A stretch of 64,000 nt of DNA from Vulcanimicrobiales bacterium (lineage in GTDB: Bacteria > Vulcanimicrobiota > Vulcanimicrobiia > Vulcanimicrobiales > Vulcanimicrobiaceae): NCBI GenBank assembly GCA_038231455.1, contig JBBRLI010000001.1, forward strand, positions 160,001 through 224,000. The letters run 5' to 3'. This document shows positions 3,383-12,443 of this stretch, one piece after another (the first letter of the stretch is position 1; the number at the start of each line of letters is the position of its first letter). Both the position numbers and the translations under genes were made by a program. The notes below the pieces were generated by a model that worked only from the letters and a program-made list of their open reading frames with translations, was not told the DNA's origin and made no database searches.

Positions 3383-3946
3383 CTAGGATTTCTTTTTACC
3401 TCGATTGATCTCCGCCGCAAGTTCCGGATCGTCAGCCATTTCAATTAGTACTGAGGCCGCAACCGGAATTCTCGAACGCCATTTCCGTAGGACACCGATA
3501 AAGTAAGACCGCGATTGACCGAGTGCCTTGTCGCGCGTGAGATCAGCAATTAAACCAACGTCTTCTTTCTTTGCCAAAATCGATATTGCAACGGCCAGAC
3601 CGTCCTTTAGACCAAGGCCAGTCTTGTGTGGCGCTGCCTTATACAAGTCAACTATTTGCGGAAAAAAGCGGTAAGCTTCCGGCGTTCCCAACGCCCGAGC
3701 AATGCCAGCTTGTATTTTGAAAGAGTATGGCCGAGTTATATGTTTCATCAGCACTGGAATAGCCGGGCCGTACGGCGAGCCGGTATTGACCAAATCCCAA
3801 ACGCTGGACACGCGCACTCCCACGGCGTCTAAGTCGCGGCGAATAGCTTGCTGCTCAGCATCCAATATCTCGCGTTCGATTTTCATATCGAGGGAGCGAT
3901 TGGGCCGTTGATTTGGATCGCTCCGATCCGGACCGTCTACGTTCAT
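3383..3946 (-). CDS. Putative immunity protein for the upstream Rhs toxin (helical, HEAT-like)
   Basis: 187-aa ORF 32 bp downstream of, and co-oriented with, the Rhs gene. GAGGGA SD-like site upstream; SVWDLVNT..Y..AIPVL..H...GIARAL pattern. Immunity role inferred from position. Confidence 0.65.
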   Translation of the reverse strand: MNVDGPDRSDPNQRPNRSLDMKIEREILDAEQQAIRRDLDAVGVRVSSVWDLVNTGSPYGPAIPVLMKHITRPYSFKIQAGIARALGTPEAYRFFPQIVDLYKAAPHKTGLGLKDGLAVAISILAKKEDVGLIADLTRDKALGQSRSYFIGVLRKWRSRIPVAASVLIEMADDPELAAEINRGKKKS

Positions 3947-3978
3947 CTAAAGATCCCTCATCACTAACATGAGCTACT

Positions 3979-6900
3979 TCATTGCTTCTGCACAATTTCT
4001 GGAATAAGTTGGTGGATAATATTTCCAGTCGAAATTAGAGTTTTTAGAGGACCGCTGAGCTTCGTATCTGCGCGAACATATAACACAAAATCTAGGTTAT
4101 TGTCCTTCGCAAAGCTGGCGTAGTCTCGCAACTGTTGAGTATAACTTTGCGTTGTCACGTTCTTAATCTCGGTCAGCGTAGTTTCGGTCAAACCGTCTGG
4201 AATTCGAGTGACCCCTCCGATTTGAATTTTTACTTTTTTACCGATATCGATACCTGGTATAGCCCGAACAGCTTCTTCGCCGCGCCGTCCGACGGCTGCG
4301 GCCGAGCGTCCAGCGCCGGGATGCTCCAGAGCTTCAGTAATTGCTGGTCCATTTCTTGCAGAAAAACTTCCTAGAGCAACCGCCGCTCCGCATAGTATTG
4401 CTAGAGGACCGACGCAGTAGCCGCTGGGATCGCTATAAACATATGCATTATTCCGATTCCACATAAAGGGCATCTGCGAAGCGGGGTCGTGCACTTCTCC
4501 GGCGTACGCATCGGGCGTCGTCCAAGAAGCCAAATTCGAATTGAAGGCTCGCGCCCCGTTAATTTGGAGCTTGCCCAATTTGAAGCCATCGGGGCGAGTG
4601 TATTGCATGAAAGAGTTGGTCGGTGGGGTGAAGCCTGATCTGGCAGCGACCGCGAACGGAGCCGAGTTGTCCGTGGGATTTAGGGGTGTCAGCCAAGATG
4701 AGCCGCTGCTATTCGACGATTGTAAGATCACGTTCGCACTATCCCGATCGTACGTATTCAACCCTGAAAAGTTGCTATCGTGCGGATAAACGTCTCCGTC
4801 AAGGCCGACTTTAAAGTTCACGACGCTTCCACTTGCATCGGAGACGAATAACAACATGTCTCCATCCCAATGCGCCGTCCAAATCGAATTTGAGGTGTTC
4901 GCGTAATTTGGATCGATTGTTCCTGTAAAAAGAACGGGGTGACCATTGGAGCCCCAAGCTATCGATAACGGGCCAGCATCGAATGTTGAGTTCTGTGTCG
5001 CACCGGTCGATGAGCGGTAGGTCGAGGTGGCGCTTTTCGCATGCGTCCAAACTGTGTGATCTGCGAAATCGTAAGCTGCCGGCTCGGTACTCGAGGTTCT
5101 TCGCGTGACCGTCCCACCCCCGGTCTCGGCCGGACCGTCAGATATTGTCGTTTCCGCCATCGTGCTGTTCGTCATTCGACCACTTGCGTCAAACACGAAA
5201 TCCGATGAATTTTCAGAGCCACTACTGAAAGTTGAGTCAGAGTGAACACTAATTCCGTTAATAAAGTCACTGGAGTTATTCTGCGTGACCGCCGAACTGC
5301 CCTCAAACATTTGTGGCATCGACTTGCCAAAACCGTAACTAGGAATTGTCCTTGTATAGCCTTGCAAGACATATGGAATTGGCGAATACTGAGATTGTAT
5401 TAACTCACCCCGAACATTGAAGATATTGGAGACGGACACTGGCGAGCCTGTGGACTGCCCCGCTGTTAAGATCGGATAAACCGACGAGAATCCGGCAGTA
5501 ATCGGATTACCTTCAGCGTCATAGTCGTATGAGAGAGTGCCGGAGGGAACCGTCAACGTTGCAAGTTGCCCAGCTTGATCGTATGTCCGAGATTGGAAGT
5601 CGTTGTTGACAGCTTGGGATTGTAAGCGGCCACCCGCGGTATACAATCTATTCCAAACGGCGGACGCAGATTGGTTGTACGTCTGCTGGGCCAGCAGCCC
5701 GTCTACTCGATAAGAGTACGTGAGTACATTGGGAATGTTGAGAGTCGGTGAAAACACCGAAAGTGACTTCTTCCCACCGTCTGAAAAGTATGAGTACGCA
5801 AGATGGGCAGGATCCGTTATGCCGCCTGCCGTCGGCTCGAGGACGTCGGTTAGTTCGCCGCGGAGATCGTAAGATAAAGTCTCAAGACCAAACTTACTCG
5901 ACGTTAATGTAGCGGGGCGACCAGCTGGGTCGTAGACGATTTGCTCGTTCGGAGTCGTGTTGGCGCCACCGTCGGCATTGGAGGTCGGTGCCAAGTAGGT
6001 TCTGGTGACGATCCTAGCCAGCGCGTCATACGTAATCGACATAACTTCGCCGGTGGGCTTTGTTTCGGTCGCGCGTAAGCCCCAATGGCCTTCGCCGTCA
6101 TACGTATCCACGGTTGCCAATGGCGTGTCCGGGCTACCGGGTTGATATGTGTACTTCGAGAGGGACCGATCCATCGCATCGAAAGAATTTCCACGCACGT
6201 CGGTCATGACGCCAGTCCACGACTGTGTCTTGAAAAGATTGCCGTACGCGCGGAACGTTGGCGATCCTCGAAGAGAGACACTTCCGCCCTGAGAGAGATC
6301 ATAAATATAGCGCATGATCCAAGGAGAGCCATCATATTGCGCTAGGGAGCCGTCTTGATAAGATCGCGGGTCGTGAGGCTGTTGAACTTCTATAAGGCGA
6401 TCGGCACCGTCGTAGAACTTTCGAGTCGGCGATTCGGCACAGCTGGCAAGTGTACAACCCTCATGGCGTAACTCGGACGTAACATCGCCGTCCCTGTCAT
6501 AGGCATATGATGTCCTAACGTTAAGCCGTGCTTCTCCCGGAGACTGAGTCGTGGCGACCGAGCCATCCGGGAAATACGTTGTAGTTGATGCGTAGCCATC
6601 CGGGTCATTCGCTTGGACTATCCTATCGAGCCCATCGTAACTCAGAGACCAAGAGCCGACCCCCTTGCTATAGTTAATAACATTTCCGCGCGTGTCATAC
6701 GAAAACGCCTGAGTCGGGGTGCGCCCGGCATCCTCCGGAATTGGGTCGCCAGTAACCGAAACAGGCAGTCCGTATTCATTCCCTCCCTCCAAATTTGGGT
6801 TATATGCAAAGTGCGTCGCGTACGGTGCTGCACCAGAGCGCGGAGAGGGAGCCTGGATCTGTAAAAGCCGACCGTAGGGTTGATATGCCGGATAGTCCCA

Positions 6901-8835
6901 AGTCATCACCGTCGAGACTGAATTTGCGGGGCACACACCGGGTGGGGGCGGACTCGAATACCAATTCCAATTCAGATTGTTCGTGGCCACTTCATCGCAA
7001 TAGGCCGTGACATTATTATACGCATCGTACGTAAAAAGCTTCGTTGGGCGTAGAGTTCCAGCGGATGTGGTGGTTTGTGGAGCGGCGACCGCAATAGTAT
7101 TGCCGTTAGAATCGTATGCGTAATCAGTCTCGTTGTACGGCCAGGTGATTTGAGATATTTTATTGTTGTTAGAATCCCAGCCTTCTACTTGCGTCAGCCA
7201 CTGGTAACCGTTGTACGTGAGTCGACTCGTCGGCCTACCGGGATCGCTGAACGAGCCGTTTCCGCAACCGTCGATATATTGAACCACTTGATGCCCGTCG
7301 CTGTCGCTATACGAAGTGCTGTTGCAACTCCCGGTTACCGTCTCGTATCGGTACATGAACCAGCCTGTCGGGTATCCTGGCTGCAGCTGCGTGTTCGTAC
7401 CGTCGTTCAGATACGCCGGTCCAGGTGACATTGCGCCATATAGGCCAATTCCAAAAACTTGACCGCTGAGAAAGCCGCGCTCTTGAAAAGCAACATATCC
7501 GCCTTCGTTTCCTTGATTAGCGTATGCACGCGCACCGCCAATATACATGACGTTGTGATAGCCGCCATATAGCTGAGTGGCAAGCTGACCGCTATTGTCC
7601 GGTCCAGGCTTCGAGACCAGCGATAGATTTGAACTGCCATCATAGCTATACGTGATCGCGGCTCCGTCCGGACGGTCGACCTCAGAGAGTAAACGTTGCC
7701 CATTGACATCGGCGAATTTTAAGGTTGCCTGGAGGCATCCACAGTCCGCCGCAACGACGATCTGAGAGAGATTTGCACTGGAGGATGCATCGCCGTTCCA
7801 CGAATACGAAAAATTCAGAGAACTGTGACGGTTTCGCGCCTGTATTGAAACTAATCGCCCGCTATAAGCTGCACTCGCTCCGCTATAATACGGCGAGTAG
7901 AACATATATTGGGTTCCATTCTTCTTTATCCAGAAAAATGAACCACCATCCGGATTGGCAATCAACATCGTTCCTTGCATCCCGGCGGGCGGGACGAGCT
8001 GGCCAGATGCATTGAAGCAATAGTCGTATCGGGCGCCGTCGACGTCATAAACCGAGAATCCTGAGAACCCAGCCCACGAGTAGCCGACATTAGCGCAGTC
8101 GTTTGTCGACATGTGTGCATCGAACGTATTCGTCCACCCATTGCCGTATTGACCAATTTCAGTCGACCCATCGCTGCTTTGATAGTCGTGCCCGCCAAGG
8201 GAATTATACGTCCGACGAAACGCAAGGTCGATGCCGCGATAGGGGATATCAAAATCCGTTGACTGCACAATTAGGTTTTGCCAGTGCGCGTTTATCATCC
8301 AGTGGCCAACCCCTGGGATGTCGCCTTCTTCATAAGACCACCACGGATTAATGCCGGTTACGTTGAGCGTGTTTTGTGTGACCTGCGAGGCGCGACGAGT
8401 TGTACCAGCTCCCCGTTTACCAACCGCAGTCGGCGCCGATGCCGAAGTCGTCGAGGCTGTCGAGATGATTCTGCTCGATGATGCACGACTAAAAAAACGA
8501 ACTACCGCTTCTCCAGAATTGCGCTTACGCTTCGTTCGCATGTCGTCGTCATCATCGCCGATCCGCGGTCCAGGTTGTCGGAGGCCGGCGGCGGGAGCGT
8601 TTTTCGTCGCTATCTTTGGTTTCTCGATGTGCGTCACCGCGGGTAGAGTTGGCTTGGGTTGCGGGCGCTGATGCCGATCGAATTTCTTCGGATCGTCTGG
8701 GAAAAACGAAGGAACGAAATATGAATTCAACGAGCCGCCGCTCGCCGTTCCAGACGCATCGGAGGGCGAGCACGAAATCGCCATAAAAGCAATCGAAAAA
8801 AACGCCGCTAGGGCAGCGCGATAAACCAAGGACAC
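3979..8835 (-). CDS. Rhs/YD-repeat polymorphic toxin with N-terminal signal peptide, DUF6531-like domain and C-terminal Tox-REase-7-like nuclease domain
   Basis: GTG 8835 preceded by GGAGGT, with a hydrophobic leader. NLIVQSTDFDIPYRGIDLAFRRTYNS; many YD repeats (YSYDGSSN, YAYDSNGN, FSYDTRGN, YDRDGD, YDAEGN); core end RNNAYVYSDPSGY; tip RIPDGLTETTLTEIKNV..SYTQQLRDY..LYVR..LSGPL. Confidence 0.9.
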   Translation of the reverse strand: MSLVYRAALAAFFSIAFMAISCSPSDASGTASGGSLNSYFVPSFFPDDPKKFDRHQRPQPKPTLPAVTHIEKPKIATKNAPAAGLRQPGPRIGDDDDDMRTKRKRNSGEAVVRFFSRASSSRIISTASTTSASAPTAVGKRGAGTTRRASQVTQNTLNVTGINPWWSYEEGDIPGVGHWMINAHWQNLIVQSTDFDIPYRGIDLAFRRTYNSLGGHDYQSSDGSTEIGQYGNGWTNTFDAHMSTNDCANVGYSWAGFSGFSVYDVDGARYDYCFNASGQLVPPAGMQGTMLIANPDGGSFFWIKKNGTQYMFYSPYYSGASAAYSGRLVSIQARNRHSSLNFSYSWNGDASSSANLSQIVVAADCGCLQATLKFADVNGQRLLSEVDRPDGAAITYSYDGSSNLSLVSKPGPDNSGQLATQLYGGYHNVMYIGGARAYANQGNEGGYVAFQERGFLSGQVFGIGLYGAMSPGPAYLNDGTNTQLQPGYPTGWFMYRYETVTGSCNSTSYSDSDGHQVVQYIDGCGNGSFSDPGRPTSRLTYNGYQWLTQVEGWDSNNNKISQITWPYNETDYAYDSNGNTIAVAAPQTTTSAGTLRPTKLFTYDAYNNVTAYCDEVATNNLNWNWYSSPPPPGVCPANSVSTVMTWDYPAYQPYGRLLQIQAPSPRSGAAPYATHFAYNPNLEGGNEYGLPVSVTGDPIPEDAGRTPTQAFSYDTRGNVINYSKGVGSWSLSYDGLDRIVQANDPDGYASTTTYFPDGSVATTQSPGEARLNVRTSYAYDRDGDVTSELRHEGCTLASCAESPTRKFYDGADRLIEVQQPHDPRSYQDGSLAQYDGSPWIMRYIYDLSQGGSVSLRGSPTFRAYGNLFKTQSWTGVMTDVRGNSFDAMDRSLSKYTYQPGSPDTPLATVDTYDGEGHWGLRATETKPTGEVMSITYDALARIVTRTYLAPTSNADGGANTTPNEQIVYDPAGRPATLTSSKFGLETLSYDLRGELTDVLEPTAGGITDPAHLAYSYFSDGGKKSLSVFSPTLNIPNVLTYSYRVDGLLAQQTYNQSASAVWNRLYTAGGRLQSQAVNNDFQSRTYDQAGQLATLTVPSGTLSYDYDAEGNPITAGFSSVYPILTAGQSTGSPVSVSNIFNVRGELIQSQYSPIPYVLQGYTRTIPSYGFGKSMPQMFEGSSAVTQNNSSDFINGISVHSDSTFSSGSENSSDFVFDASGRMTNSTMAETTISDGPAETGGGTVTRRTSSTEPAAYDFADHTVWTHAKSATSTYRSSTGATQNSTFDAGPLSIAWGSNGHPVLFTGTIDPNYANTSNSIWTAHWDGDMLLFVSDASGSVVNFKVGLDGDVYPHDSNFSGLNTYDRDSANVILQSSNSSGSSWLTPLNPTDNSAPFAVAARSGFTPPTNSFMQYTRPDGFKLGKLQINGARAFNSNLASWTTPDAYAGEVHDPASQMPFMWNRNNAYVYSDPSGYCVGPLAILCGAAVALGSFSARNGPAITEALEHPGAGRSAAAVGRRGEEAVRAIPGIDIGKKVKIQIGGVTRIPDGLTETTLTEIKNVTTQSYTQQLRDYASFAKDNNLDFVLYVRADTKLSGPLKTLISTGNIIHQLIPEIVQKQ

Positions 8836-8989
8836 GGGACAACCTCCCACCAGTAGAGGGCACAAACGATGTCCCATGCGCATGATTCGAGCGGCGAAGG
8901 TTGTCGCCGTACCATTACCGTAACGCGGGATACGTCACAGACTACTACGACCTCAAGTGGAGGTCAAGTGGCTGTGCGAACGGCCTCAC

Positions 8990-11626
8990 ATGCATTTCCT
9001 TCGCCGCGCGCTCGTTACGAGTCTAGTTGTCCTTGGGATTATTCTTGGAATTGGGAGGACCGAAGCCGAATCAACAAATCTCGATCGGTTCGATTTTAGT
9101 GCGCAAAATGAGACGGTTCGCTCGGTTCTTCTTCGGCTCGCACGCGTTCACAACGCGAGCATTGTTGTTTCGCAGGGAGTTACGGGTTACGTCACGCTCT
9201 CGCTAAAAAACGTTACGCTGCGCGATGCGCTTACGGCGATTCTTGAGCCGATCGGCGATACATACCAAGTTCGTGGAAATGTCTACGTCGTAAAAGCCGG
9301 CGCGTCAGTTTCCCTCGATGGCGCCGCTACGACGGCCCCGACGGTCTTAGCACTCTCGATCATTCCCGCAAAGGTTGGCCGCGAGGTTCTTAAACCGCTT
9401 TTTCCTTCTGCGGAGATACGGGTCGACGCACGTGCAAATGCGCTGGTCATCGTTGCGCCACCCTCAGATCTACAGTCGATGCGGACGGTTCTTCAGGGCA
9501 TTGACGTAAAGAATCCAACCGCCGATACGACCGAAGCGCTCTCGCTTCGAACTGCGAGTGGTGTTTCGCTGACCTCTCGACTACGCGCGGCATTCCCAAA
9601 GGCGAAATTCTTACCGGTTGGCTCCCGCCAGCTTTTGATTACCGCAACGCCAAATGAACTCACGCAAATTAAGGCCGCGGTCGCAGCGCTCGACACGCCG
9701 CCGCCTCAGCCGACCTCGATCACCGTAAATTCTGAAGCCGTCCGCTTGAACGTTCGCGCTCCGAGCGATGTTGCACGTTCTGTCGTCTCTCAGATACCTG
9801 GCGTGCGCGCCTCCGTTGCTGGCGGCGCGGTCGTGCTCTCCGGACCAACGGAACTCGTCTCGCGCGCGAAAGCTCTCATCGTGCAGCTCGACGTTCCGAA
9901 TTTTGGCGATCGCTATACACAAATTTATCGCGTCCGGACGGTCGATGCGACCTCCGTCGCCGACCTTCTCCGACGGAGTATTCGCAACATCGATGTTAGC
10001 GTCGATGCCTCACTCAATGCCCTAGCTATAAATGCAACCGCTGCGGACCACGCGCGGATCGCCGAGGCGATCGCACAGTTTGACGCGCCGGCCTCGACGG
10101 CGTCAACGAGTTTTTCCGGTATGCCTTCGACCGGTTCGAACGGATCCTCCGAGGTGATAACGTTAAAATCGTATATTCCCGGACAGGGGCAAGGCGCAAC
10201 CGACGCGGTCACTTCTATCTCTGCGGCTTTGCTTATCGCCGTCCCAGACGTAAAAGTAGCGCAGCTTCCGACGCCCGGTCAGATCGTCATTATGGGATCC
10301 CCGGCGAGTGTTCGCACGGCCCACGAATTCATCAATAAGGTGGACTTGATTCCACCGCTCGTCGTCTTAGATACGGAAGTTCTCGAGATAGACGAAAGCG
10401 TAGCAAAAAATCTCGGTGTGCAACTCGGCACCGCTGCTATTACGAGCCAATTTACGGAACAACAACCTCAAGCGACCGACGGTGCGACGCCGCGGCTCGG
10501 TCGCTTTCAAGCGTTGACGCGAACGCCGATCCAGTTTACGGCTCAGCTAAACTTGCTGATACAAAACGGCAAAGGGCGCGTTTTGGCCGATCCGCGCATC
10601 ACGACACTCTCGGGACACACCGCCACCATCCGCGCAGGCGACACGATTTCGATTCTGACTACGACGTCGGGCAACGCCGGGACAATTGCTACGACCCAGG
10701 TCCAGAGTTTCCAAACCGGCGTCACGCTCGATATTACGCCGTCGGTTACCCCCGATGGGGACATTATGGTGAGCCTACACCCGGTCGTGAATAGTCTTAT
10801 TGGCACAAATAACGGCGTTCCGGAGATTAGTACCCGTGATACCCAGACCACGGTCCATCTGCGCGATGACGAGACGCTAGTTATTGGCGGCCTCATCCAA
10901 GAGAACGAAACGCGGACAACGACCCGAATACCGTTTCTTGGAAACCTTCCGGTAATCGGTCGCGCTTTCCGCAACGACAACGTTCAAGGGCAGCGCAACG
11001 AGCTGATCATCGTCGTCACACCACATGTCGTGAAGCCGGGGACAACCGTACCGGGGCCTCGTCTCACCACATTCCCCTCGCCGCAGCCGCTACCAACGTT
11101 GCCGCCCACCGCGCAACTCCCCCCGCCCGTGGGTCAGCTTCCACGAACGGTACCGGTTCCAAGCCCAACCACGTTGCGGTCCGCGGCAAGCACGCAAATG
11201 AATCCGGCATCGCCGATGGCGAGCGGCACTGCCGCCGCTTCCCCGACACCGCAATCGCCGTCGCCAAGCGGTCTTTTACAAACAAATGTATTTGTGTTCG
11301 GCTCGCCGCCGCAAAGTAATTTTGCCAAGCCTACCGATGTCGTACAAATTCTCTATTGCACGCTATCGCCAACCGTCGCAGCGACGAATGGAACGCCGGT
11401 AAAAATCGCGGTCGTCACCACCTCAAACGCGAACGCCGTTCGCCTCATGATCGGCTCGCAAAGCGTGAACCTTGCACAAACGGGAATCGGACAGTGGCAA
11501 GCGTCGTTCCCATTCCCGACAACCGCGATTCCTGTGGGCCAGAGCAGCATTACGGCAACACTTCTGGCCCTTCGTATAGACGGCAGCAGCGCCAGCATTC
11601 CGATTTTGCTTTCGCTGGCTCCGTGA
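8990..11626 (+). CDS. Secretin (GspD/PilQ superfamily) with STN and multiple N-domains, Pro-rich linker and extra C-terminal domain
   Basis: Signal peptide MHFLRRALVTSLVVLGIILGIGRTEA. STN-like VTGYVTLSLKNVTLRDAL; N-domain motifs VDARANALVI and VDASLNALAI; secretin core GKGRVLADPRITTLSGHTATI, TGVTLDITPSV, LVIGGLIQE, IPFLGNLPVIGRAFR, RNELIIVVTPHVV. Start uncertain (GTG 8957 alternative). Confidence 0.9.
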   Translation: MHFLRRALVTSLVVLGIILGIGRTEAESTNLDRFDFSAQNETVRSVLLRLARVHNASIVVSQGVTGYVTLSLKNVTLRDALTAILEPIGDTYQVRGNVYVVKAGASVSLDGAATTAPTVLALSIIPAKVGREVLKPLFPSAEIRVDARANALVIVAPPSDLQSMRTVLQGIDVKNPTADTTEALSLRTASGVSLTSRLRAAFPKAKFLPVGSRQLLITATPNELTQIKAAVAALDTPPPQPTSITVNSEAVRLNVRAPSDVARSVVSQIPGVRASVAGGAVVLSGPTELVSRAKALIVQLDVPNFGDRYTQIYRVRTVDATSVADLLRRSIRNIDVSVDASLNALAINATAADHARIAEAIAQFDAPASTASTSFSGMPSTGSNGSSEVITLKSYIPGQGQGATDAVTSISAALLIAVPDVKVAQLPTPGQIVIMGSPASVRTAHEFINKVDLIPPLVVLDTEVLEIDESVAKNLGVQLGTAAITSQFTEQQPQATDGATPRLGRFQALTRTPIQFTAQLNLLIQNGKGRVLADPRITTLSGHTATIRAGDTISILTTTSGNAGTIATTQVQSFQTGVTLDITPSVTPDGDIMVSLHPVVNSLIGTNNGVPEISTRDTQTTVHLRDDETLVIGGLIQENETRTTTRIPFLGNLPVIGRAFRNDNVQGQRNELIIVVTPHVVKPGTTVPGPRLTTFPSPQPLPTLPPTAQLPPPVGQLPRTVPVPSPTTLRSAASTQMNPASPMASGTAAASPTPQSPSPSGLLQTNVFVFGSPPQSNFAKPTDVVQILYCTLSPTVAATNGTPVKIAVVTTSNANAVRLMIGSQSVNLAQTGIGQWQASFPFPTTAIPVGQSSITATLLALRIDGSSASIPILLSLAP

Positions 11627-11920
11627 CTACCTAGTTCGAATCTTTTTCGCCAGAAGCGCCACGGATTTTTCGAGTTCACTTACGCGCTCACTCAGCGTTC
11701 TTGATGCCTTGCCTTCGTCACTACCCAAAGCAAGGTACCGAACGTCGACATCGAGGGCTTCTGCAAGACGAAGACCGACGACGAGACTCGCACTCTTCGT
11801 CTGACCTGACTCCATTTGGCGAATGGCCCCTTCGGTAACACCCACCATGTGCGCAAGGGCACTTGGTGTTAGCTCCGCGTCGACGCGAAGTCGGCGCAAT
11901 CGATCCCCAAAGGTCTCCAT
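11627..11920 (-). CDS. XRE-family helix-turn-helix transcriptional regulator
   Basis: METFGDRLRRLRVDAELTPSALAHMVGVTEGAIRQMESG..LAEALDVDVRYLA. Its stop codon abuts the secretin stop. Confidence 0.85.
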   Translation of the reverse strand: METFGDRLRRLRVDAELTPSALAHMVGVTEGAIRQMESGQTKSASLVVGLRLAEALDVDVRYLALGSDEGKASRTLSERVSELEKSVALLAKKIRTR

Positions 11921-12179
11921 GGCTCGCGCCTTGCGCGCTGCGGGCATCTGATCCCGCCTGCGTCGAGGTATAGTTTAGGACGAAGGGCTTGATTTCAATG
12001 CGACGAAGGGGCACATCGCTACCGCTTTCCGGGTGTATTTTGATGAACGATTATCAGCCAAACTTGCCAAGGACTCGGACTGGTTCCTTGACTAGGACCA
12101 GTATTAAATTCATGGCTTTCGCAACTCGGCTAGTGCCGTTTTGGGGCAACGGATGCTGAGAGATACCGCTCCCTCGTAC

Positions 12180-12443
12180 ATGGACGACGGTGACACGGAA
12201 GAAGTGTCCGACAATCTTGGAACGCGCCTCCAGAACGATCTAAAGGACGGGCTAGCGAGTTTAGGCTTAGAGCTGGTCGTAGAAGACAGTATCGGCGTTA
12301 TCGCCCTGCGCGTGGTAAACGATAACAACGTCGGTACTGCTTACCTCGAAATTCGCGACGGTGGCTTACAGATTCGGGTAATCCTCGCAAACGATCAAAA
12401 CGTTGAAATCGCGGGTGCTCGGCGCGCAGGATCAGCGGCATAA
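12180..12443 (+). CDS. Small hypothetical protein
   Basis: Only plausible ORF between the XRE and TPR genes; no recognisable motif; start uncertain (12141 possible). Confidence 0.4.
   Translation: MDDGDTEEVSDNLGTRLQNDLKDGLASLGLELVVEDSIGVIALRVVNDNNVGTAYLEIRDGGLQIRVILANDQNVEIAGARRAGSAA

Follow-up and report, generated by a model that had tools for sequence, protein, structure and literature searches.

A lineage-specific secretin recurrently linked to Rhs toxin-immunity pairs in Vulcanimicrobiota, a candidate outer-membrane exit pore

Two-partner secretion in contact-dependent growth inhibition (CDI) is built of CdiB, CdiA and CdiI, that is, an Omp85 pore, a filamentous haemagglutinin toxin and an immunity protein. 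Rhs toxins with signal peptides are also a known class (Zhang et al. 2012, PMC3482391), for which the available text lists no exporter gene; it is their crossing of the outer membrane in diderms that is considered here. The DNA analyzed, called the window, is a stretch of 64,000 nucleotides (JBBRLI010000001.1) from a Vulcanimicrobiales bacterium of the phylum Vulcanimicrobiota, in a family of soil and sediment bacteria, and its genome (G000) is 93.7% complete. The window contains an Rhs toxin-immunity pair that is gene-linked to a lineage-specific secretin, and this secretin is likely a motor-free outer-membrane exit pore for the toxin, a reading to which a probability of roughly 0.55 is given. 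Its observed base consists of the gene anatomy, a genomic island, recurrent linkage, tip exchange, a separate secretin clade and the lack of recurring genes for pili or for type II or type VI secretion systems (T2SS, T6SS). A first-pass annotation of the window was confirmed in its gene-level observations and supported in part in its interpretation. Its premise that Rhs toxins released by the Sec pathway are confined to monoderms was not supported, since signal-peptide Rhs toxins are described as the default class “in all bacteria” (PMC3482391).

The four-gene layout noted by that annotation, namely candidate immunity gene, rhs, secretin and XRE regulator, was recovered from open reading frames (ORFs) and Pfam matches. 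The features are as follows (aa, amino acids; GC, guanine plus cytosine fraction; HTH, helix-turn-helix; Ig, immunoglobulin).

3362..~12500, no strand: low-GC island with the whole module, 9.1 kb, GC 0.543 versus 0.62 and 0.61 in the flanks
3383..3946, minus strand: putative immunity protein, predicted cytoplasmic, HEAT-repeat-like, 187 aa, start 32 bp past the rhs stop
3979..4419, minus strand: toxin tip after DPSG, 146 aa, Tox-REase-7, predicted DNase (PF15649, E 1.4e-19)
3979..8835, minus strand: Rhs polymorphic toxin, 1618 aa, with signal-like peptide, variable leader, DUF6531 plug, cocoon, DPSG and tip
8836..8989, no strand: divergent intergenic gap, 154 bp
8990..11626, plus strand: stand-alone secretin, 878 aa, with signal-like peptide, N0/STN, five N-rings, barrel, Pro-rich linker and Ig-like domain
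11285..11626, plus strand: clade-specific C-terminal beta-sandwich (Ig-like), about residues 766-878
11627..11920, minus strand: XRE-family HTH regulator, accessory (HTH_3, E 2.3e-8)
12141..12443, plus strand: small doubtful ORF within the island, 100 aa, weak DUF4194 match (E 0.011)

The rhs and secretin genes start head-to-head across a gap of exactly 154 bp, as described before, and no sigma-70 consensus promoter was found in this gap. The rhs start was placed at a GTG at 8835 with GGGAGG upstream, which gives 1618 aa; the longest ORF, from an ATG at 8883, has 1634 aa. Both proteins have the N-terminal signals ascribed to them earlier, here termed signal-like because they were called by eye and by a crude hydrophobicity scan, and the leader of the Rhs, which ends in AISC, may be a lipoprotein signal. 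G001, a genome of the same genus, has no island: there the stop of the acyl-CoA dehydrogenase gene (window 3361) is followed about 23 bp on by a homologue of the tetratricopeptide repeat (TPR) gene at window 12521. The module moves as one island, and its absence from G001 could be a gain or a loss event. No convincing target-site repeat was found at the island ends.

The pairing was followed in 401 genomes of the phylum, 296 of them in the window's family (f1), with two candidates scored per genome. Secretins of the window's clade occur in 93 of the 401 genomes and in 91 of the 296, and the Rhs family occurs in 76 of the 401. Loci were taken from the flanks of the best 80 of 133 secretin hits (by score and contig size), to which 13 earlier loci and the 79 closest loci were added before deduplication. 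The resulting 119 secretin-first loci comprise 53 with Rhs, 19 with a giant S8 protease, 19 with neither and 28 that are too short; the 76 loci flanked by 5 kb or more on each side divide into 42 with Rhs, 15 with giant S8 and 19 with neither. Six of the genomes are unpublished: of these, G020 and G030 contribute a single locus each to the 119 (Rhs-divergent and S8, respectively) and none to the 76, G029, G048 and G059 served as tree outgroups and G361 entered the tallies only, and the conclusions are independent of all of these. The linked Rhs is divergent at 43 loci and on the same strand at 10, and in all 53 cases it lies less than 3 kb from the secretin, with a median of 772 bp between the aligned segments. 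In a metagenome set, in which most contigs are short, three are duplicates of earlier loci and one locus is unscored, Rhs was found at 14 of 43 clade loci versus 0 of 37 non-clade secretins. The pairing of rhs with this secretin is far above chance. The possibility that homologous secretins would show no linkage to rhs thus failed, as the synteny recurs with variable tips (53/119 loci; 34 tip groups).

Within the family, the secretin was found in 53 of 73 Rhs carriers versus 38 of 223 non-carriers, figures in which kin dependence inflates any p-value. Similarity among the Rhs proteins correlates with that among the secretins in a Mantel comparison (rho 0.30, n=34), but this was put down to co-inheritance and kinship and not used as functional evidence. 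In the converse direction, 102 Rhs hits were kept after 12 of 114 rows were dropped as second segments or fragments; 49 are linked in the tables, and 45 of the other 53 were examined, giving 6 with a secretin or a piece of one, 28 unlinked over at least 5 kb upstream and 11 too short. Most of the closest loci are recorded as Vulcanimicrobiota/Eremiobacterota and a few as other taxa. Clade loci recorded as Frankiales, Limnocylindrales, Acidimicrobiaceae and Acidoferrum (L205, L212, L216, L236, L260, L274) may reflect mis-binning, mis-naming or transfer.

The window's secretin matches STN, Secretin_N and Secretin in Pfam (E 1.2e-45) and stays below the GspD, PilQ and SctC profile cut-offs (for GspD, TIGR02517, 185 bits versus a cut-off of 351), and its best sequence matches in the PDB are GspD proteins (E 1e-36). 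The structural model has N0, five N-rings, a barrel of low confidence, a Pro-rich linker and a confident C-terminal beta-sandwich. This last domain (predicted local distance difference test, pLDDT, about 80-90) gave Ig-like structure matches at Z 8-9 with no solved family singled out; it is present in 98 of 110 clade proteins versus 0 of 21 other secretins, and its position after the barrel predicts a periplasmic location. The Ig-like domain was also looked for in the Rhs, the S8 proteins and the partner lipoprotein; none of them has it, and the idea of a shared sorting domain was rejected. A quick tree of 126 core domains (IQ-TREE), without proteobacterial GspD, placed 105 clade rows on one side of a branch opposite 21 other phylum secretins, with a support of 97 in the approximate likelihood ratio test SH-aLRT. 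Accordingly, this tree separates the secretin from PilQ as a distinct clade, and the suspicion that it would group with housekeeping secretins was not borne out. The window's subclade (support 100) has 13 informative loci, all of them Rhs-divergent, and 6 more that are too short; the S8-linked members cluster in 4 changes, and the Rhs-linked members are spread across several subclades. G000 itself has four secretin barrels, with PilQ as a separate gene on contig C5 and a second clade member at C1:40099 beside an S8 lipoprotein. A contig-end fragment (G000:C21:47489-47887) is the C-terminus of a third clade secretin, and G000:C17:6084-7682 (L004) encodes another type of lone secretin, outside pilus clusters and with relatives across the class.

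The Rhs of the window matches DUF6531, RHS repeats and Tox-REase-7 in Pfam; as annotated before, it has no Pfam match to PAAR, VgrG or WXG/LXG, and no match to the two-partner secretion (TPS) domain was found in the same search. A leader of about 130-150 residues with a hydrophobic N-terminus is not conserved across 66 homologues, and the conserved core runs from about residue 160 to the DPSG at 1469. By the crude scan, most of 86 long Rhs ORFs, linked and unlinked, begin with a basic-hydrophobic signal-like stretch. The AlphaFold model of residues 151-1340 (70-row alignment; pLDDT 89; predicted template modelling score, pTM, 0.86) has T6SS Rhs cores as its top Foldseek matches (E ~1e-39); phmmer of the Rhs against PDB sequences gave 0 matches, so that the link to known cocoons is by fold search only. 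In this model the cocoon starts right after the leader, and therefore no separate delivery domain would stand ahead of it. Some clade secretins have a neighbour from a second, more distantly related Rhs family (L114, RHS2, 1725 aa; L070:14293-17433).

The tip of the window's Rhs has near-zero identity to the tips of the other family members examined, and 43 secretin-linked tips fall into 34 similarity groups. A Pfam match was obtained for 7 of 42 tips (HNH twice, Ntox24 twice, LHH, GIY-YIG and DUF1287/CHAP) and none for 35. From these comparisons, tips are exchanged among the Rhs proteins of secretin-linked loci. The putative immunity protein has no Pfam or NCBIfam match, and its language-model feature matches in Atlas are 0.96-0.97 to HEAT_2 clusters. 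Tox-REase-7 tips are listed with HEAT immunity proteins (PMC3482391), and position and HEAT-likeness of the 187-aa protein fit such a pairing, which makes it a candidate immunity protein.

G000 carries BamA, and both an outer membrane and type IV pili are described for the cultured member V. alpinum (PMC9758169); because of these two observations, an outer-membrane step is needed. A mechanism in four steps is proposed. Rhs would first cross the inner membrane by Sec and then fold in the periplasm, with the cocoon around a nuclease tip self-cleaved at DPSG; since the tip is predicted to cut DNA, its periplasmic transit would be harmless to the producer. It would then exit through the secretin, or be displayed at it, with the five N-rings serving as a conduit and the C-terminal Ig-like domain, on its tether, perhaps acting as a catch or anchor. 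Finally, a neighbouring cell would receive the released tip and have its DNA cut, while the HEAT protein would protect siblings. T6SS delivery of the clade-linked Rhs is not supported, given the lack of a PAAR/VgrG leader and a VgrG that was not found in G000 and rose above the cut-off in 1 of 50 genomes tested.

Cargo-driven passage is favoured over a borrowed pilus piston. As annotated before, no pilus machinery lies in the window: PilB/PilT and PilC of G000 sit on contig C5, in a single type IVa pilus (T4aP) cluster with pilins and its own PilQ. The only two PF00437 ATPases of G000 belong to this cluster, and there is no other motor. No pilus, T2SS, Tad or T6SS family recurs beside the clade secretin, whether GspE ATPase, GspF platform, pseudopilin or GspC/PilP-like partner. 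The best surviving rival, still rated unlikely, states that the secretin is swapped in, exporting Rhs only when docked on a resident type IV pilus or Tad motor encoded elsewhere. The pilus cluster of G000 and PilB in 31 of the 50 genomes tested are consistent with it, as are two described cases: xphA/xqhA lie outside the xcp locus in Pseudomonas aeruginosa and the pair works with Xcp (PMC6567927), and protein secretion by type IV pili is described for Vibrio and Dichelobacter (PMC4471445). The window's secretin also keeps N0, the domain that contacts GspC in structure 3oss, but N0 is missing in 29 of 47 full-length Rhs-linked clade secretins, and no GspC/PilP-like protein accompanies them. Furthermore, PilB was found in 0 of 12 genomes of genus g47, which include closed or near-closed genomes with intact rhs-secretin pairs. 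G204, G179, G106 and G099 have Rhs-secretin pairs and a Tad cluster with its own secretin but no PilB; three of them also have conjugation ATPases. The search of G185 (94% complete, 4 contigs) found neither ATPase nor platform nor pilin, and its sole secretin is the Rhs-linked one. Borrowing would mean a T4aP motor for some hosts and a Tad motor for others; as carriers have T4aP, Tad only or no motor found, one borrowed motor cannot explain all of them. No motor is common to all carriers, although the genomes are incomplete and promiscuous docking remains compatible with this. A T4aP motor acting in trans had been the first idea, and it was weakened by the PilB-free g47, the Tad-only carriers and the motor-free G185. 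The Tad ATPase of G179, G204, G099 and G106 (L280-L283) is, judged from its sequence, a fusion protein of about 690 aa whose N-terminal part is ParA/CpaE-like.

Several points weigh against the secretin as a motor-free exit pore for Rhs. Secretins are gated pores, usually opened by a pilus or a substrate-loaded piston, and we infer the functional steps, export and binding included, from gene context. Clearly unlinked genes, with no secretin in at least 5 kb upstream, make up 28 of the 102 Rhs hits, and 18 of the 76 Rhs-bearing genomes gave no clade secretin; intact-looking Rhs without it was found in G162 (96%, 40 contigs), G188 (93%, 10) and G352 (94%, 90). Neither Rhs nor giant S8 stands at 19 of the 76 well-flanked loci, and one subclade has housekeeping genes such as secA and prfB for neighbours. 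The loci were drawn from top-scoring hits, and a few genera dominate them. The Rhs of G185 is split into 182 and 1524 aa in a genome 94% complete, and therefore the best motor-less genome may lack a working toxin. In Neisseria, the Sec-dependent polymorphic toxin MafB leaves the cell independently of PilQ (PMC4287609). Modelling Rhs 155-860 in complex with the C-terminal domain of the secretin gave a score of 0.00, which counts neither way.

Some of these points feed a second rival, which we also hold improbable, that the secretin merely travels with the toxin. It would have another envelope job, such as lipoprotein display or polymer or nutrient passage, and Rhs would leave by vesicles, lysis or another factor, like MafB. 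The unlinked Rhs genes, the Rhs genomes without clade secretin, the clade members without large cargo nearby, the PilQ-independent MafB and the secretins of slime secretion in cyanobacteria and myxobacteria (PMC12475490) all agree with it. It fits poorly with a link as tight as that described above, kept through inversion and in several subclades, with the lack of Rhs at the 37 control secretins, and with the fact that most other neighbours are likewise Sec or lipoprotein exoproteins. The weakest rival, very improbable in our judgement, makes the secretin the toxin's receptor or entry channel in targets, limiting killing to kin with the same pore; it would also yield tight linkage with tip and immunity turnover and would account for an otherwise unexplained tip entry into target cells, but it leaves the S8 protease and lipoprotein neighbours unexplained, entails a toxin receptor that is costly to keep, and sits badly with a clade-specific domain predicted to be periplasmic.

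Under the preferred reading of an exit pore, members of this pore family at other loci are likely to export further large cargo of the Sec or lipoprotein kind, such as the S8 proteases. The word “dedicated” in the first-pass annotation is not supported, since clade members also stand beside giant S8 proteases (19 of 119 loci) or surface lipoproteins and many Rhs hits (28 of 102) are unlinked. The giant proteins beside clade secretins at these 19 loci are subtilase-like, about 1400-1600 aa long and carry a signal peptide (for example L065, L066, L071, L097, L100, L104, L110, L113 and L116); many share a C-terminal stretch, and in G008 two of these modules stand in tandem. Another cluster recurs at G000:C1:37871-46440 (W001), L092, L095, L328, L332 and L336. 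It is made up of S8 lipoprotein, NHL lipoprotein, clade secretin, small lipoprotein, DUF1800 and DUF1501, and its gene content suggests surface-lipoprotein export. The housekeeping subclade (secA, prfB, prfA), mostly of genus g25, has no obvious cargo (L094, L098, L101-L103, L106, L109, L303, L326); its secretin could serve the many unlinked rhs genes of that genus in trans.

The XRE regulator, taken earlier as a core part, was rejected as such: it was found at 6 of the 119 clade loci only, in the same convergent position (3 Rhs, 3 S8). Regulators of the TPR-LuxR type occur more often, at 9 of 53 Rhs loci. At L081, L086, L087, L144 and L146 a TPR-LuxR regulator of about 500-545 aa lies between rhs and secretin; elsewhere it follows the secretin. 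A Pfam-less small lipoprotein stands directly after the secretin at 20 of the 119 loci (L067:8617-9252, L073:726-1340, L131:8039-8881) and is a pilotin candidate. As an obligatory pilotin the small lipoprotein was rejected, being present at 12 of 53 Rhs loci and not in the window.

In conclusion, the pairing is real and recurrent; it joins two known parts, appears not to have been described before, and would be a new secretion route if the secretin suffices alone. More than 50 loci indicate a candidate exporter, and the three-gene cassette of secretin, rhs and immunity gene makes the exporter question testable. If the secretin acts alone, it breaks the rule of secretins as gates of multi-protein motors; the system would also describe antagonism in a soil phylum where T6SS was rarely found and many tips (35/42) are Pfam-less. 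A bolder version, held tentatively and at less than even odds, would make the lone secretin, with no pilus, pseudopilus or ATPase, a two-partner-like transporter that uses its own C-terminal Ig-like domain for megadalton-free Sec cargo of 150-200 kDa (cocoons and giant subtilases), and the main interbacterial weapon route of Vulcanimicrobiota.

The literature search returned no paper on an Rhs-linked secretin or on protein secretion in this phylum; subscription papers were mostly outside its coverage, and the supplements of PMC3482391 could contain such neighbourhoods. The module resembles the Sec-dependent (“T2SS/Sec”) Rhs toxins of that paper in signal peptide, Rhs repeats, REase-7 tip, HEAT-like immunity neighbour and variable tips. 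In its available part, however, no neighbourhood signature gene is tabulated for the class and the word “secretin” occurs 0 times in 300,000 of 357,715 characters of text, whereas at the present loci one particular secretin clade takes the part of such a signature. A Sec signal is also seen in MafB, but this toxin is not an Rhs and does not need PilQ (PMC4287609). Like the orphan XphA/XqhA of Pseudomonas aeruginosa, the secretin gene lies outside a machine locus; unlike XqhA, which has a GspC homologue as partner and the host Xcp motor (PMC6567927), it has no GspC-like partner and is linked to its presumed cargo. The two-step logic of Sec and then secretin, together with the GspD matches, recalls T2SS, but the protein is below the GspD cut-off, has five N-rings, an often lost N0 and an extra C-terminal Ig-like domain, and its loci have no ATPase, platform or pseudopilin in hosts with T4aP, Tad or no motor found. 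It also differs from PilQ of T4aP and from the Tad secretin in its separate clade and own loci, the Tad clusters carrying their own nearby secretin. The predicted cocoon fold is shared with T6SS Rhs effectors (RhsA 7q97, Tse5 8cp6, 8qja), as is the DPSG of the window's Rhs with their DPxG cleavage motif (PMC8765631), whereas a PAAR/VgrG leader is missing and T6SS was not found in nearly all hosts tested. With CDI the module has the genetic logic in common, in which a single outer-membrane pore is combined with a polymorphic toxin exported by Sec and an immunity gene, except that the pore is a secretin instead of Omp85/TpsB and the toxin an Rhs cocoon instead of a filamentous haemagglutinin.

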